NCBI GenBank assembly: GCA_041485465.1
Contig: JBGPJO010000002.1
Span: forward strand, 6,629-70,628
Direction of reading: 5' to 3'
Source of the DNA: Minisyncoccia bacterium
GTDB lineage: Bacteria > Patescibacteriota > Minisyncoccia > Phycocordibacterales > JAKFXT01
DNA: 64,000 bases
A program made the translations under genes and the position numbers. Under the pieces are notes generated by a model. It did not search any database, had not been told where the DNA came from, and saw only the letters and a program-made list of their open reading frames with translations. Below are positions 2,682 to 12,080 of this stretch, in pieces; position 1 is the stretch's first letter, and each line of letters starts with the position of its first letter.

Positions 2682-3296
2682 GTGAAATTCATTCTCGGCA
2701 CAAAGCAATACATGACGCAGGTGTTTGATGAAAAAGGCGTGGTCACGCCCGGCACTGTTGTTTCCTGCGGTCCGGTCACCGTAACTGCCGTCAAAAACTC
2801 CGAGAAAGACGGATACAAAGCGGTTCAGGTTGGCTTTGGTGTTGCAAAAGAAAAAAATGTTTCAAAACCACAGCTCGGTCATTTCAAAGGAAAGGGCCCG
2901 TTCAAGCATCTTAAAGAATTTAAGGCTTCCGAAGGAACATTTGAAGTCGGTTCGACTATTGATGTTTCAACATTTAACGAAGGGGATACCGTTTCTGTTT
3001 CGGGAATTTCAAAGGGTAAAGGTTTTCAGGGTGTGGTCAAGCGCCATGGCTTCCATGGAGGTCCTCGCACTCACGGGCAGAAGCATTCCGAGCGCGAGCC
3101 GGGGTCAATCGGCGGTGGCGGACGCGCGGGGGGTCGCGTCATCAAAGGTATGCGCATGGCGGGAAGAATGGGGGGAGACCGCATATCGGTTGCGAACCTG
3201 CGCGTTATCAAAGTTTTCCCAAAGACGAACGAGATGATTATTTCGGGAGCGCTTCCCGGCGCGCGTGGCACCTTGCTTGAAATTGTTTCTATATAA
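2682..3296 (+). CDS. rplC: 50S ribosomal protein L3 (GTG start)
   Basis: GTKQYMTQVFDEKG...FQGVVKRHGF motifs match L3. Position in the S10 operon is as expected. Confidence 0.9.
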   Translation: MKFILGTKQYMTQVFDEKGVVTPGTVVSCGPVTVTAVKNSEKDGYKAVQVGFGVAKEKNVSKPQLGHFKGKGPFKHLKEFKASEGTFEVGSTIDVSTFNEGDTVSVSGISKGKGFQGVVKRHGFHGGPRTHGQKHSEREPGSIGGGGRAGGRVIKGMRMAGRMGGDRISVANLRVIKVFPKTNEMIISGALPGARGTLLEIVSI

Positions 3297-3303
3297 ATAA
3301 AAA

Positions 3304-3963
3304 ATGGAAGCGAAAATTTACAACCAAAAAGGAAAAGAGGCGGGGAAAATAAAACTTCCCGAGGAAGTTTTTGGCCTTCCCTGGAACGCCGACCTAGTAC
3401 ACCAGGTTATTACCTCGATGGAATCAAGCGGGCGTTTTGGCACTGCTCACACGAAAGATCGCGGTGAGGTTAGGGGCGGTGGCAAAAAGCCATGGCGGCA
3501 GAAAGGCACGGGGAGAGCGCGGCACGGTTCGATCCGTTCTCCTATTTGGAGGGGTGGAGGTATTACCCACGGTCCGCGAGCTGAGAAAAACTACGAGCGC
3601 AAAGTTAATCGGAAGATGAAGCTAAAAGCGCTTCATACGCTTTTATCGCGAAAGTGGAAAGACGGAGAAATAATTTTCATGGACAGCCTCTCCCTTTCAG
3701 CGCCAAAAACCAAGGAAGGAAAGGAAATTCTTTTGAATCTCGCCGGTATCGCGGGATTCGAGGGAATCATGAAAAAGAAGAAAAACGCGCTTTTACTTGC
3801 AATCGACAAGAAAAACGCGCCGGTTGAAAAAAGCTTCCGTAATTTCGCGAATGTTGAAGTCTCCGAAGTGAGGAATCTCAATCCGGTTGCCCTTGCCACC
3901 TACCGCTTTGTCGCAATTGTTAATCCCGAAGAGTCGCTTAAATCGTTCGCAAGGAAGATATAA
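3304..3963 (+). CDS. rplD: 50S ribosomal protein L4
   Basis: KPWRQKGTGRARHGS motif. Confidence 0.9.
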   Translation: MEAKIYNQKGKEAGKIKLPEEVFGLPWNADLVHQVITSMESSGRFGTAHTKDRGEVRGGGKKPWRQKGTGRARHGSIRSPIWRGGGITHGPRAEKNYERKVNRKMKLKALHTLLSRKWKDGEIIFMDSLSLSAPKTKEGKEILLNLAGIAGFEGIMKKKKNALLLAIDKKNAPVEKSFRNFANVEVSEVRNLNPVALATYRFVAIVNPEESLKSFARKI

Positions 3964-3971
3964 TCAACACC

Positions 3972-4349
3972 ATGGCAATTTTTGGAGGAAAAAAGAAAAC
4001 TGAAATGAAAAAAGACGCCCCGAGTGCCGCTATCGAGCGCGAAATGGGAAATATTGTGCGCGAAGAGAGGGAAACATTTCCGTCGCGCGTCATTATACGG
4101 CCGCGCATTACCGAAAAGGCGACAGCCAAGTCAGAATCGGGTGTGTATACGTTTGATGTCGAAAAAAGTGCGACGAAAAATTCAATTGCCTCTGCCATAA
4201 AAAATCTTTTCAAGGTGACGCCGGTTAAGATCGCGATTGTTCCTATCAAAAGCAAGAATATATTCTCTCGCGGTAAACGCGGCAGGACGAAAACCGGCAA
4301 GAAAGCGTATGTCTATCTGAAGAAGGGAGATGTCATCGAATTTGTCTAA
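3972..4349 (+). CDS. rplW: 50S ribosomal protein L23
   Basis: RPRITEKA...YTFDV pattern, with the gene order expected for L23. Confidence 0.85.
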   Translation: MAIFGGKKKTEMKKDAPSAAIEREMGNIVREERETFPSRVIIRPRITEKATAKSESGVYTFDVEKSATKNSIASAIKNLFKVTPVKIAIVPIKSKNIFSRGKRGRTKTGKKAYVYLKKGDVIEFV

Positions 4350-4358
4350 AGAAAAATC

Positions 4359-5204
4359 ATGAAAACATACCGACCAACAACCCCCTCACGCCGCAACATG
4401 ACCACGATTTCAAATCGTGAGCTAATAACGCGCGACCATCCGGAAAAGTCTCTCGTTTCCGGTGGAAAACGCGGTGTCGGGAGAAATGCTTTTGGCCGGA
4501 TTACGGTTCGCCACAAAGGGGGCGGACACAAGCGCCGCTTCCGTGACATCGATTTTCTTTTCGATAAAATAGATATTCCGGGGAGGATCGCGTCAATTGA
4601 ATATGATCCCAATCGCTCTGGTCTCATTGCGCTTATCATCTATAAGGATGGCGAGAAACGTTACATGCTCGCGCCTCAATCACTGAAAGTCGGGGAGACG
4701 ATTCTTGCGGGAGAAAAAGCGCCACTGACGCCGGGTAATCGTCTGCCGCTTAGAAATATTCCGATCGGCACATTTGTTTATAATATTGAACTCAAATCGC
4801 GCGGCGGAGCGAAACTCTGCAGAAGCGCGGGAAACTATGCCGAAGTGATCGCTCACGACATGGGCTACGCCAACGTGAAGTTGCCCTCGACTGAAGTGAG
4901 AAAAATTCCCGAAAATGCTTGGGCTTCAATCGGCGAGGTTTCAAACGAGGAGCATCACTTGGAAAATATCGGCAAAGCGGGACGCTCTCGCTGGATGGGT
5001 ATTCGTCCGACCGTTCGCGGTACCGCTATGAATCCGGTTGACCATCCTCATGGCGGGGGCGAAGGACGCCAAGGACGCGGATTGCGCCGTGCCAAAAGCG
5101 CGTGGGGCAAGCCGACAGGCAAGGGGCAGAAGACAAGGACGCCGAAGAAATACTCAAATCGACTTATCGTCTCTCGCCGTAAGGTTGGCAAAAAGCGAGA
5201 ATAA
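4359..5204 (+). CDS. rplB: 50S ribosomal protein L2
   Basis: GRNAFGRITVRHKGGGHKRRFR, HPHGGGEG and SNRLIVSRRK motifs. Confidence 0.95.
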   Translation: MKTYRPTTPSRRNMTTISNRELITRDHPEKSLVSGGKRGVGRNAFGRITVRHKGGGHKRRFRDIDFLFDKIDIPGRIASIEYDPNRSGLIALIIYKDGEKRYMLAPQSLKVGETILAGEKAPLTPGNRLPLRNIPIGTFVYNIELKSRGGAKLCRSAGNYAEVIAHDMGYANVKLPSTEVRKIPENAWASIGEVSNEEHHLENIGKAGRSRWMGIRPTVRGTAMNPVDHPHGGGEGRQGRGLRRAKSAWGKPTGKGQKTRTPKKYSNRLIVSRRKVGKKRE

Positions 5205-5212
5205 GAAAAAAA

Positions 5213-5241
5213 CATCGCGCCCCTCGCGATGTTTTTGTTTT
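5213..5241 (+). terminator. intrinsic terminator after rplB (CATCGCG/CGCGATG stem plus TTTTTGTTTTT)
   Basis: Perfect 7-bp stem followed by a T-run. It is followed directly by a TTGACA hexamer. Confidence 0.6.
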
Positions 5242-5298
5242 TGACAATAAGAGAAAATCTAGTAGTTTGAAAGGAGAAAACAGATTGCGAGGGATGTC

Positions 5299-5574
5299 AT
5301 GGACCAAAATGGCGAAGAGTCTTCTTATCGCTACACAGTTACTTGGAAGCCGACGGGTGAAAAACTTCACATCTGCTCAGAAGAAGAGCTGAAGAGAGAA
5401 ACAATCTTTATCATTCCTAAACGGTTGGGGAGTGAAACCCTCCTTTCGTCCTGCCGAAAATTCACCGTTTTTGTGTGCTTGCTTAACGGCACAAAGATCA
5501 AACTTGACGTTTCTCTTGATGATGAAGCAAACACTAGTTCGTTACGTGGTCAAGAGAAGGCGAAAATTCCATGA
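5299..5574 (+). CDS. hypothetical protein (91 aa), first gene of an inserted cassette
   Basis: GAGGGA Shine-Dalgarno 4 nt upstream. It overlaps the next ORF by 4 bp (ATGA). No homology is recognisable. Confidence 0.4.
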   Translation: MDQNGEESSYRYTVTWKPTGEKLHICSEEELKRETIFIIPKRLGSETLLSSCRKFTVFVCLLNGTKIKLDVSLDDEANTSSLRGQEKAKIP

Positions 5575-5870
5575 GTGGTCCTCTCGGGAGGGTAACGTCG
5601 GTTGTTGCCAAAGAGCGCAAGGGAAGGGTAATTTTTATCCACACGATTAAGATCCACACGAAAAAATACCACCGCAAAAGCTATTTCTACCTCCTAACCT
5701 TTCGCGAAATAGAAAAAGGATCACTGATCAAGATCCTCATACCCTCAGAGGTTCCAAGCATCCAAGTCTATGTGCCGTGGAATTGCCTTGAGTATTCTCT
5801 CCCGATAGGCAATACGGGAGTAGATTGGCAGGGAAAAATTTGTCTTTTCCGAAAAGTCCTAACGGGGTAG
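5571..5870 (+). CDS. hypothetical protein (99 aa), second gene of the inserted cassette
   Basis: Translationally coupled to the upstream ORF. Its stop codon lies inside the terminator stem at 5864-5897. Confidence 0.4.
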   Translation: MSGPLGRVTSVVAKERKGRVIFIHTIKIHTKKYHRKSYFYLLTFREIEKGSLIKILIPSEVPSIQVYVPWNCLEYSLPIGNTGVDWQGKICLFRKVLTG

Positions 5871-5897
5871 CAATTTGACACTGCTACCCCTTTTTTG
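5864..5897 (+). terminator. intrinsic terminator (GGGGTAGCA/TGCTACCCC stem plus T6)
   Basis: 9-bp perfect stem followed by TTTTTTGT. Confidence 0.65.
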
Positions 5898-5973
5898 TAC
5901 TATGCACAGGCCTCATTTGGCGAAGGCACGTACCCCGTAAGGGTGTGCTTTTTATTTTATCTTGCATTAGATA

Positions 5974-6333
5974 ATGACGCGATCACTCAAAAAAGGACCA
6001 TACCTTGACCCGAAACTTTTGAAAAAGATTGAGGGTAAACGGCCTGAAAATGTCGGGGTTATTAAGACCTGGGCACGCCGTAGCCAGATTTCTCCTGAAA
6101 TGGTCGGTTTCAAGTTTGGTGTTCACAACGGCAGAGACCATATCGAAGTTTTGGTGACGGAGGATATGGTCGGGCATCGTCTCGGCGAATTTTCTCTGAC
6201 GCGCAAGTTTCTCCGTCACGGCGGCAAGATGCAAAAGGAACTTGAGCAGAAGAAAAAAGAAGCCGAAATTGCCGCAGCGCAGTCGGCGAAGGCATCGACC
6301 ACTGAAAAAGCGCCCGCTGCTCCGGCAAAATAA
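5974..6333 (+). CDS. rpsS: 30S ribosomal protein S19 with an Ala/Lys-rich C-terminal tail
   Basis: [14 protein letters not shown]...GHRLGEFS motifs. Confidence 0.9.
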
Positions 6334-9449: not shown

Positions 9450-9544
9450 GGCTTCTTTGTTTGACAGAAGCTCTTTCGCTTGGTAGCATAGCGCAAAAGC
9501 GAAGAGACGCTTTTTATTTTTCGTCAAATTTTCACCTGCTTTTT

Positions 9545-11015: not shown

Positions 11016-11633
11016 ATGGATGAAGAAAAACAATTAATCACAGAAGAGACCCCCACAGAAGCGGTGCCGACCGTTGAGGCTACGCCGATCCCCACTCCCG
11101 CCCCTGTTTCAGAGACTCCGCGAATGGATAGGAGAGGCGAGCGGGGATCGAGGAAAAATCTTCGCCGCCCTCCTCGCCGTGCCGAGCGGGCACGCCCTGA
11201 ATTTGATCAAAAAATTCTTTCGCTCCGCCGGGTAACACGCGTTGTCGCCGGCGGTCGCCGCTTCAGCTTTGCTGTTTCGCTCGTTGCCGGAAACAGAAAG
11301 GGTATGGTTGGTGTCGGGACGGGAAAAGCGGGGGATACCGCGCTTGCGATTGAAAAAGCCTTTCGTGAAGCCAAAAAAAATATGCGAATGATTCCGCTCA
11401 CCAAAAGCATGTCGGTACCGCACGACACTGAAGCGAAATACGCAAGCTCCATCGTTAGAATCATGCCTGCCCCCGGGCGTGGTATTGTCGCGGGCGGAGC
11501 GGTCAGGAGCATCCTTGAATACGCGGGCATTAAAGATGTCGGCGCAAAGGTTCTCTCGAGAAGCAAGAATGCCCTGAATAACGCACGGGCAGCGCTCAAA
11601 GCGCTTGAGCTGATGCATCCGCGCAAGAAATAA
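11016..11633 (+). CDS. rpsE: 30S ribosomal protein S5 with an acidic/Pro-rich N-terminal extension
   Basis: RRFSFAVSLVAGNRKGMVGVGTGKA motif. No rpmD (bL30) ORF lies between this gene and rplO. Confidence 0.9.
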   Translation: MDEEKQLITEETPTEAVPTVEATPIPTPAPVSETPRMDRRGERGSRKNLRRPPRRAERARPEFDQKILSLRRVTRVVAGGRRFSFAVSLVAGNRKGMVGVGTGKAGDTALAIEKAFREAKKNMRMIPLTKSMSVPHDTEAKYASSIVRIMPAPGRGIVAGGAVRSILEYAGIKDVGAKVLSRSKNALNNARAALKALELMHPRKK

Positions 11634-11639
11634 ATCTCT

Positions 11640-12080
11640 ATGCAACTTCACCAAATCAAAAGAAGGACAAAAAATAAAAAGCGGGCGGCAGTCGGCCGCG
11701 GTGGAAGGCGCGGTAAGACGTCAGGCCGCGGCACCAAAGGCCAGAAAGCGCGGGCCGGACACAAATTGCGCCCCGAGCTTCGGGATATCATTAAACGTCT
11801 CCCGAAAATACGCGGCCGCGGTAAAAATTCTTTTAAGTCGATTACGGAAAAACCCTTTGTCATCAATATCGATCGTTTGGTAAAAATCTTCGAGAAAGGA
11901 GAGGCAATAAGTCCCGAATCGCTTACTGCGAAAGGCATTGTCAGGATGGTTAATAGTCGCTCGCCGCGAATTAAAATTTTAGGCGACGGGGAGGCGACAA
12001 AAGCGCTCACCATTGTCAACTGCCAAGTTTCGCTTCCGGCGAAAATTAAAATCGAAAAGGCTGGCGGCTCTATTTCTTAA
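11640..12080 (+). CDS. rplO: 50S ribosomal protein L15
   Basis: GRGGRRGKTSGRGTKGQKARAG motif. Confidence 0.9.
   Translation: MQLHQIKRRTKNKKRAAVGRGGRRGKTSGRGTKGQKARAGHKLRPELRDIIKRLPKIRGRGKNSFKSITEKPFVINIDRLVKIFEKGEAISPESLTAKGIVRMVNSRSPRIKILGDGEATKALTIVNCQVSLPAKIKIEKAGGSIS

Follow-up and report, generated by a model that had tools for sequence, protein, structure and literature searches.

The stretch of DNA analysed here, 64,000 nucleotides of a contig (JBGPJO010000002.1) from a Minisyncoccia bacterium and hereafter called the window, contains an S10 cluster of ribosomal-protein genes in which rplB (ribosomal protein L2) and rpsS (S19) are separated by a spacer of 769 bp. This spacer holds two small open reading frames (ORFs), ORF1 and ORF2, together with three hairpins that are each followed by a U-tract. 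The initial annotation of the window had described the segment as an autonomous two-gene cassette, perhaps a toxin-antitoxin or other selfish module, inserted within a single operon. In this text, we use the term slot to refer to the variable region between rplB and rpsS, whatever its contents in a given genome. The features of the segment and its two borders are listed below in window coordinates.

4359..5204, + strand: rplB (ribosomal protein L2), from the ORF list, with Pfam L2 domains annotated on an identical contig
5208..5241, + strand: T1, predicted terminator; 12-bp stem AAAAACATCGCG/CGCGATGTTTTT at 5208-5236, then a T-run; bidirectional in form
5241..5268, + strand: P1, candidate sigma-70-type promoter of the cassette (TTGACA, 16 nt, TAGTTT)
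5299..5574, + strand: ORF1, 91 amino acids (aa), near-neutral (isoelectric point, pI, of 6.6), orphan
5571..5870, + strand: ORF2, 99 aa, basic (pI ~10), orphan
5864..5896, + strand: T2, predicted terminator of the cassette; stem GGGGTAGCA/TGCTACCCC at 5864-5890, then T6
5875..5903, + strand: P2, predicted rpsS promoter (TTGACA, 17 nt, TACTAT), with its -35 inside the T2 loop
5922..5957, + strand: 5' leader hairpin of rpsS with U-tract, from folding (hairpin at ~5922-5952); a clade-conserved element
5974..6333, + strand: rpsS (S19), from the ORF list, followed by rplV, rpsC and so on

The anatomy given by the initial annotation is present to within a few bases. The ORFs have the 91 and 99 aa that it stated, the start of ORF2 overlaps the stop of ORF1 by 4 nt (ATGA), and rpsS begins at 5974. 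The terminator that it placed behind rplB at 5213-5241 is found at 5208-5236, as a strong hairpin with a T-run (-16 kcal/mol, z = -5.0 on folding), and the second terminator, said to enclose the stop codon of ORF2, is found at 5864-5890 (-16.5 kcal/mol, z = -3.6), with the TAG stop (5868-5870) lying within its 5' arm. Both T1 and T2 have the form of intrinsic (Rho-independent) terminators, which consist of a G+C-rich hairpin with a U-tract right behind it.

Promoter-like sites were scored at ~128,000 window positions with a matrix that was trained only on the rpsS promoters of relatives (n = 87). P2 is the best-scoring site of the whole window (22.4 bits), and P1 is the third best, with a score of 15.5 bits that is reached by 3 of the ~128,000 positions; a generic consensus promoter scan missed P1. 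The TTGACA hexamer that had been pointed out behind rplB lies at 5241 and forms the -35 of this site, whose -10 ends 30 nt ahead of the ORF1 ATG. P1 and P2 both match the lineage's own promoters, and their -35 and -10 hexamers have the 16-18 nt spacing of the sigma-70 type. From these sequence properties we predict promoter activity for P1 and P2, and termination for T1 and T2. Since the ORF pair is framed by a promoter-like site (P1) and a terminator (T2) of its own, and T1 stands behind rplB, the segment does look like the autonomous unit that was first proposed.

Alternative pairings are possible in two parts of the segment. The 3' arm of T1 (5221-5236) is 81% complementary to 5278-5293, a stretch that covers the GAGGG motif ahead of ORF1, and the 5' arm of T2 (5858-5869) is 92% complementary to 5931-5942, which is part of the rpsS leader hairpin.

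The rplB-rpsS junction among relatives

The L2 protein of the window retrieves only genomes of Patescibacteria (candidate phyla radiation, CPR) of the Paceibacteria type, at 66-82% identity, which are labelled as Nomura-, Adler- or Kaiserbacteria or as Paceibacterota. The closest relative (L005, 82% L2 identity) has a contig that ends at rplB, and a scan of metagenomes for closer relatives gave L2 identities of at most 73%. All junctions of the cluster were measured in 145 non-redundant loci, from 109 of which the L2-S19 gap was obtained. The median length of this gap is 464 bp, with extremes of 62 and 3720 bp; the gap is longer than 150 bp in 83 of the 109 relatives, longer than 400 bp in 62, and longer than 1 kb in 23. 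At every other junction of the S10 cluster the median gap is at most 73 bp. The S10-L3 junction is a second, weaker variable site (more than 150 bp in 22/101, up to 3164 bp), the L3-L4 junction exceeds 150 bp in 7/118, and each of the remaining junctions has at most two gaps of more than 150 bp. Thus, rplB and rpsS are never adjacent in the sampled clade, and their junction is the sole hypervariable spot of the cluster.

The initial annotation had taken as its premise that essentially all bacteria have rplB and rpsS side by side on one transcript, and had called their separation highly unusual. Few features of bacterial and archaeal genomes are as conserved as the gene order of the S10 cluster, and for bacteria in general the description holds. 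Because gaps of 62-3720 bp occur throughout the clade, however, the premise fails for these relatives, among which the split is routine.

Signals for the end of one transcription unit and the beginning of another are also found at this position. A terminator-like hairpin with a U-tract is present no more than 80 nt behind the rplB stop codon in 86 of 135 relatives (64%), as compared with 0-5% at the control junctions behind L23, S19, L22 and S3. In the shortest gaps (65-215 bp), nothing but a terminator, a promoter and a short hairpin with U-tract stands between the rplB stop and the rpsS start. To judge from these sequences, the canonical S10 cluster of Paceibacteria-type Patescibacteria is divided behind rplB, giving separate transcription units. 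Here rplB is the last gene of the upstream unit, its 3' end forming the conserved left border of the variable slot, and rpsS opens the downstream unit and bounds the slot on the right. The segment therefore does not lie inside one operon, as was initially thought, and is instead situated between two transcription units, the first commonly closed by a terminator and the second opened by a conserved rpsS promoter.

This promoter has the consensus ATTTGACTTT, a 16-nt spacer and TGCTATTAT in the relatives, and ends 27-53 nt ahead of the rpsS ATG. Scores of at least 9/12 are seen in 85% of the loci and in 20% of shuffles, and scores of at least 10/12 in 51% and 3.6%, respectively. The leader hairpin starts 6-8 nt behind the -10. 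In an alignment of 85 leaders, 79.7% of the cells of the stem are paired (31-50% for slid partners), and 35 cells show double changes where 14.5 are expected, a number that was reached in 0 of 500 shuffles. Compensatory variants of the stem include AGCTC/GAGCT, GGCTC/GAGCC, CCCGC/GCGGG, CGCGC/GCGCG and GCGCC/GGCGC. Rfam gave no match to the leader, either in the window at E-values of up to 10 or in six relatives at gathering thresholds.

On this comparative evidence, the stretch at 5875-5952 is the window's copy of the clade-conserved rpsS promoter and leader, which belongs to the rpsS unit and is not part of the cassette. The third hairpin with U-tract, which the initial annotation had placed at 5917-5955 as a possible attenuator, is thus genuine, conserved and covarying, but it is to be counted with rpsS. 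It could act as an attenuator, as a 5' stabiliser, or as a stop for read-through from the cargo; its location, right where the predicted transcript begins, suits a stabiliser or a read-through stop at least as well as an attenuator.

Turnover and contents of the slot

Empty and filled slots occur in pairs of relatives whose L2 proteins are 95-98% identical. Examples are gaps of 96 bp and 1537 bp (L029 and L023), 151 bp and 1304 bp (L027 and L013), 66 bp and 1283 bp (L155 and L109), and 86 bp and 785 bp (L057 and L144). Within these pairs, homology stops at the rplB stop codon and is back at the rpsS -35, so that the terminator behind rplB lies within the variable segment. The ORFs in the gaps are mostly unrelated from genome to genome. 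The slot thereby has the properties of a hotspot, namely a fixed position between two conserved genes at which the contents vary among related genomes, both states in close relatives, and breakpoints at the conserved flanks.

A survey of the cargo by Pfam covered 138 gap ORFs of at least 90 aa; its counts are indicative only, as some loci in which rpsS was not found may be rearranged. The families seen more than once were prokaryotic diacylglycerol kinase (5 ORFs), DUF3298 (3), PemK/MazF (2), PAP2 (2) and FtsW/RodA (2), and single cases were BacA, a DEAD helicase, a reverse transcriptase, glycosyltransferases and SAICAR synthetase. Many gap ORFs have no family, including seven of ten that were checked one by one. 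The diacylglycerol kinase gene is recurrent in several species (L019, 4939-5331; L045, 8036-8428; L058, 5610-6020; L070, 5966-6358) and usually lies just upstream of the rpsS promoter. PAP2, BacA, FtsW and the glycosyltransferases are other envelope-related cargo. In one relative (L104, 5986-6568), an 82-aa gene without a family and a PemK/MazF toxin gene (Pfam E = 3.4e-28), in this order and 1 nt apart, lie on the operon strand between rplB and the rpsS promoter. This is a genuine toxin-antitoxin pair, with an apparently unclassified partner protein, and it shows that toxin-antitoxin pairs do land in the slot.

Slots of different relatives also share conserved non-coding sequences of ~55-110 nt, of which there are three kinds. 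One kind begins ATATTACACAACATATTCAAAATTCTGCAACTAGATTTTAAATGAC and is located upstream of the rpsS promoter (L031, L010, L101, L143); the second begins TATTTGTCAAGGTTCTGGAATTGCCTAGGATTTATGAGGG (L094, L036, L028, L093); and the third is a long hairpin, CAAGAACAATATTTTTGTCGGTACGGATTTTTTGAAGCTTAAAAAATCCTG...CGTTCTTG (L034, L049, L077, L044). These sequences may be small RNAs or miniature mobile elements.

ORF1, ORF2 and the interpretation of the segment

Neither ORF has detectable relatives. Pfam, NCBIfam, PADLOC and PHROGs gave no family for either protein beyond noise; the library matches to PAZ_4 (E = 0.1) and GH92 (E = 0.05) were treated as noise, and neither protein matched the defence models of PADLOC-DB at E-values of up to 10. 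In a word-indexed search of 5.8 billion proteins, ORF1 and ORF2 each matched only themselves. Sequence searches of the PDB gave no match for either, phage and plasmid records gave none to the ORFs or to the segment, and neither ORF was found in 160 related loci. Relatives carry different cargo at this junction, rather than the same ORFs as conserved residents of a ribosomal operon.

An exhaustive HMMER search with ORF2 gave two weak matches (P0003 and P0004), both of which were rejected as relatives. The first is a protein of 1712 aa with 17 Listeria-Bacteroides repeats (Flg_new), and its score is the repeat-inflated sum of eight weak stretches, each of at most ~28 bits against ORF2 in pairwise BLASTP. 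Comparison of ORF2 with the alignment of these repeats gave a probability of 20.8% (hhalign), and the Pfam Flg_new profile does not match ORF2. The second consists of low-complexity repeat sequence.

The cassette DNA is found in identical form on four other metagenome contigs, and these five contigs represent one population only. In two other assemblies of the same sequence (L001 and L002), the contigs both end at window position 5770-5771, approximately 200 nt inside ORF2; the shared end point may stem from differences between strains at the slot, or from one sample having been assembled twice.

The single-sequence AlphaFold model of ORF2 is all-beta and of moderate confidence, with a predicted local distance difference test score (pLDDT) of 62.8 and a predicted template-modelling (TM) score (pTM) of 0.52. 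Its best matches in the PDB are FN3-type sandwiches (TM ~0.55-0.6, E ~0.03), which are not significant, and the protein models only as a generic beta-sandwich. Our best guess from the model is that ORF2 is a small, basic, beta-rich protein. The ribosome-binding site that had been claimed for ORF1 is present as a GAGGG motif 5 nt upstream of its start, but this motif is uninformative because the genome's real genes are essentially without Shine-Dalgarno motifs: such a motif precedes 5 of the 52 long ORFs in the window, as compared with 16% of random positions, and none of the ribosomal-protein genes inspected has one. We therefore rejected GAGGG as evidence for the predicted translation of ORF1.

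Considering the anatomy of the segment, the clade-wide split, the statistics and turnover of the hotspot, the conserved promoter and leader, and the orphan status of the ORFs, we conclude that the segment is probably a species-specific orphan mini-operon, which occupies a clade-wide cargo slot between two transcription units. In this scheme, transcription of the rplC-rplB unit would end at T1, and P1 would drive a bicistronic mRNA of ~620 nt for ORF1 and ORF2, in which the ATGA overlap would allow translational coupling. This transcript would end at T2, and P2, with its -35 in the T2 loop, would restart transcription for rpsS and the genes downstream, giving an mRNA that opens with the leader hairpin and U-tract. 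The region from the rplB stop codon to the rpsS -35 would be a space free of constraint between extremely conserved flanks, in which cargo can be gained and lost fast. To judge from the breakpoints, homologous recombination through the conserved flanks is the most likely route of exchange, and we infer that the variability of the slot is due to this recombination together with the lack of constraint between terminator and promoter. Our best guess is that the ORF pair is expressed and non-essential.

Several observations weigh against this interpretation. A strong promoter of the P1 type is present close behind rplB in only ~5 of 65 filled slots, and so P1 was rejected as a general feature of filled slots; other layouts exist beside the P1-T2 one. 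Recombination is suggested by the breakpoints, and a search for mobility genes and target-site repeats found neither. ORF1 and ORF2 are confined to the one population, in which all DNA copies are identical. Their codon scores (0.11 and 0.144) fall in the zone where real genes (0.26 ± 0.12, 5th percentile 0.057) and shadow ORFs (-0.09 ± 0.16, 95th percentile 0.153) overlap, and the single-sequence AlphaFold model of ORF1 is poor (pLDDT 42).

An alternative is that the two ORFs are non-functional, being chance, decaying or proto-gene frames in a fast-evolving, unconstrained spacer where only the terminators and promoters matter. We consider this rather unlikely. The complete orphan status of both proteins, their intermediate codon scores, the unfolded model of ORF1, the many gap ORFs of relatives that are likewise orphans, and the loss of the ribosome-binding-site argument in a genome without Shine-Dalgarno use are all in keeping with it, and a single ORF of at least 91 aa arises in 24% of Markov simulations of a 769-nt spacer. 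However, a same-strand pair of ORFs of at least 91 aa each, as in the pair that fills 74% of the actual spacer, arises in only 0.28% of these simulations. The annotated frame is clearly the best of six in codon score for both ORFs, their ATGA overlap is a typical coupling junction and suggests translational coupling, and the pair is precisely bracketed by a top-ranking promoter-like site and a strong terminator. In addition, the pLDDT and pTM values of ORF2 were obtained from a single sequence, which also speaks against a random frame.

A further possibility is that the junction is a dedicated landing pad, formed by the 3' end of rplB and the conserved rpsS promoter with its 5' hairpin and U-tract as an insulator, at which new genes are continually captured, tried and discarded by recombination. 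ORF1-ORF2 would then be a functional module of entirely new families (e.g., a toxin-antitoxin or defence pair, or a ribosome-associated factor). This strikes us as distinctly unlikely.

The toxin-antitoxin or selfish module that was initially proposed would, in its type II form, require a new family, with ORF2 as the basic toxin and ORF1 as the antitoxin of a pair that stabilises itself in the slot. The layout is appropriate, since the two small genes are adjacent and co-directional, overlap by 4 nt, and have their own promoter-like site (P1) and terminator (T2) around them, and the charges (ORF2 basic, ORF1 near-neutral) fit as well; the PemK/MazF pair in the same slot of L104, and PemK in 2 of the 138 gap ORFs, provide a precedent. 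Sequence, fold and distribution lend no support, however. The pair matches none of the toxin, antitoxin and defence models that Pfam, NCBIfam, PADLOC and PHROGs contain, and no PDB sequence. ORF2, the presumed toxin, falls in no recognised toxin superfamily (MazF/PemK, RelE/ParE, PIN, HicA, Doc, Fic, GNAT and others) by sequence or by modelled fold; its model resembles FN3/Ig-like sandwiches and not the folds of MazF, RelE, PIN, HicA or Doc. In the sequence of ORF1, searches for domains gave no DNA-binding domain of the antitoxin kinds (RHH, HTH, AbrB, Phd/YefM), and its model is too weak to add to this. Toxin-antitoxin families are typically widespread and mobile, whereas this pair is found in one population, in no phage or plasmid record and at none of the 160 related loci. 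We thus regard the proposal as improbable.

Finally, the segment might be a non-coding RNA with a structure of its own, or what is left of a mobile element (insertion sequence, miniature inverted-repeat transposable element or intron), with the ORFs incidental. The reverse-transcriptase domain in one relative's gap and the long hairpin-like conserved elements in others might recall such an origin, but this reading is highly improbable and was rejected. The segment has no Rfam match even at E-values of up to 10, and nothing stands out when 5237-5863 is folded (z = -1.84). Neither terminal inverted repeats nor direct repeats flank it, the window holds no second copy, and neither a transposase or integrase nor similarity to phage or plasmid records was found.

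Surrounding genes and comparison with known systems

The genes of the translation-gene cluster that precede rplB in the window are as follows.

825-2081: tuf
2090-2488: rpsJ
2682-3296: rplC
3304-3963: rplD
3972-4349: rplW

Other features of this region were noted. In the rpsJ-rplC spacer (2489-2681, 193 bp), the hairpin at 2507-2537 has the form of a bidirectional terminator, and 2538-2566 is a weak promoter-like site. Between fusA (upstream, on contig L001) and tuf there is a minus-strand orphan ORF (85-408, 107 aa) with no Pfam family, so that the str cluster is also interrupted by an orphan gene; a terminator of this ORF lies at 99-72 (minus strand), and a promoter-like site of tuf is located at 696-724. 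Between rplE and rpsN (9461-9514), the clade matrix ranks a promoter-type site (TTGACA, 17 nt, TAGCAT, extended by TG) fourth in the window, and behind this site there is a small hairpin with a T-run (9495-9514). The arrangement can be likened to the rpsS promoter and leader, and suggests another internal restart in the spc region. Further downstream, rpsE is followed directly by rplO (11633-11640), with no rpmD (L30) gene between them. Absence of rpmD is a known trait of CPR bacteria, which agrees with the taxonomic assignment.

We found no description of the rplB-rpsS junction of CPR bacteria in the literature. The closest parallel is in Gammaproteobacteria, where small multigene insertions without mobility genes build up between concatenated translation operons, and lie between canonical operons such as str and S10 (PMC6735719). 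The slot is similar in that extra genes without mobility functions are located at unit boundaries while the ribosomal flanks remain collinear. It differs in that its boundary divides the canonical S10 operon itself, at the rplB-rpsS junction, and in that it is clade-wide, has a conserved promoter and leader, and turns over fast, at 95-98% L2 identity.

Hotspots of accessory genes and horizontal transfer that are flanked by core genes are a general concept of bacterial pan-genome studies. The slot shares with these the conserved flanks, the heterogeneous and often orphan cargo, the empty and filled states in close relatives, and breakpoints at the edges of the flanks. Its flanks, however, are two ribosomal-protein genes that almost all other bacteria have side by side, and its cargo is mostly 0.3-3.7 kb and without integrases, exchange by recombination being the probable route. 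ORF1-ORF2 resembles MazEF and PemIK as an autonomous unit of two short, co-directional, overlapping genes, and a real pair of this type occupies the slot of L104, but the two proteins have no toxin or antitoxin similarity in sequence, nor ORF2 in its modelled fold, and they are not spread across genomes. Like the ribosomal-protein leaders of Rfam (e.g., the E. coli S10/L4 leader), the rpsS leader is a conserved hairpin with U-tract in the 5' untranslated region and is compatible with attenuation; unlike them, it matches no Rfam family and consists of a single short hairpin 6-8 nt behind the -10.

Adjacent ribosomal genes routinely serve as one syntenic block for the binning and phylogeny of uncultured bacteria. 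The slot explains the frequent assembly breaks at rplB-rpsS, and a single cassette at this junction should not be read as an exceptional intrusion. We consider the slot to be a more valuable result than the ORF1-ORF2 cassette, which is an uncharacterised orphan pair. The conserved rpsS promoter and leader hairpin were previously undescribed. Essentially, a large uncultured clade systematically splits the S10 cluster between rplB and rpsS, and has there a fast-turnover slot for accessory and orphan genes, up to 3.7 kb long and with at least one real toxin-antitoxin pair among its contents, which provides a defined and easily located site to study the gain, loss and possibly the birth of genes in symbionts with reduced genomes.

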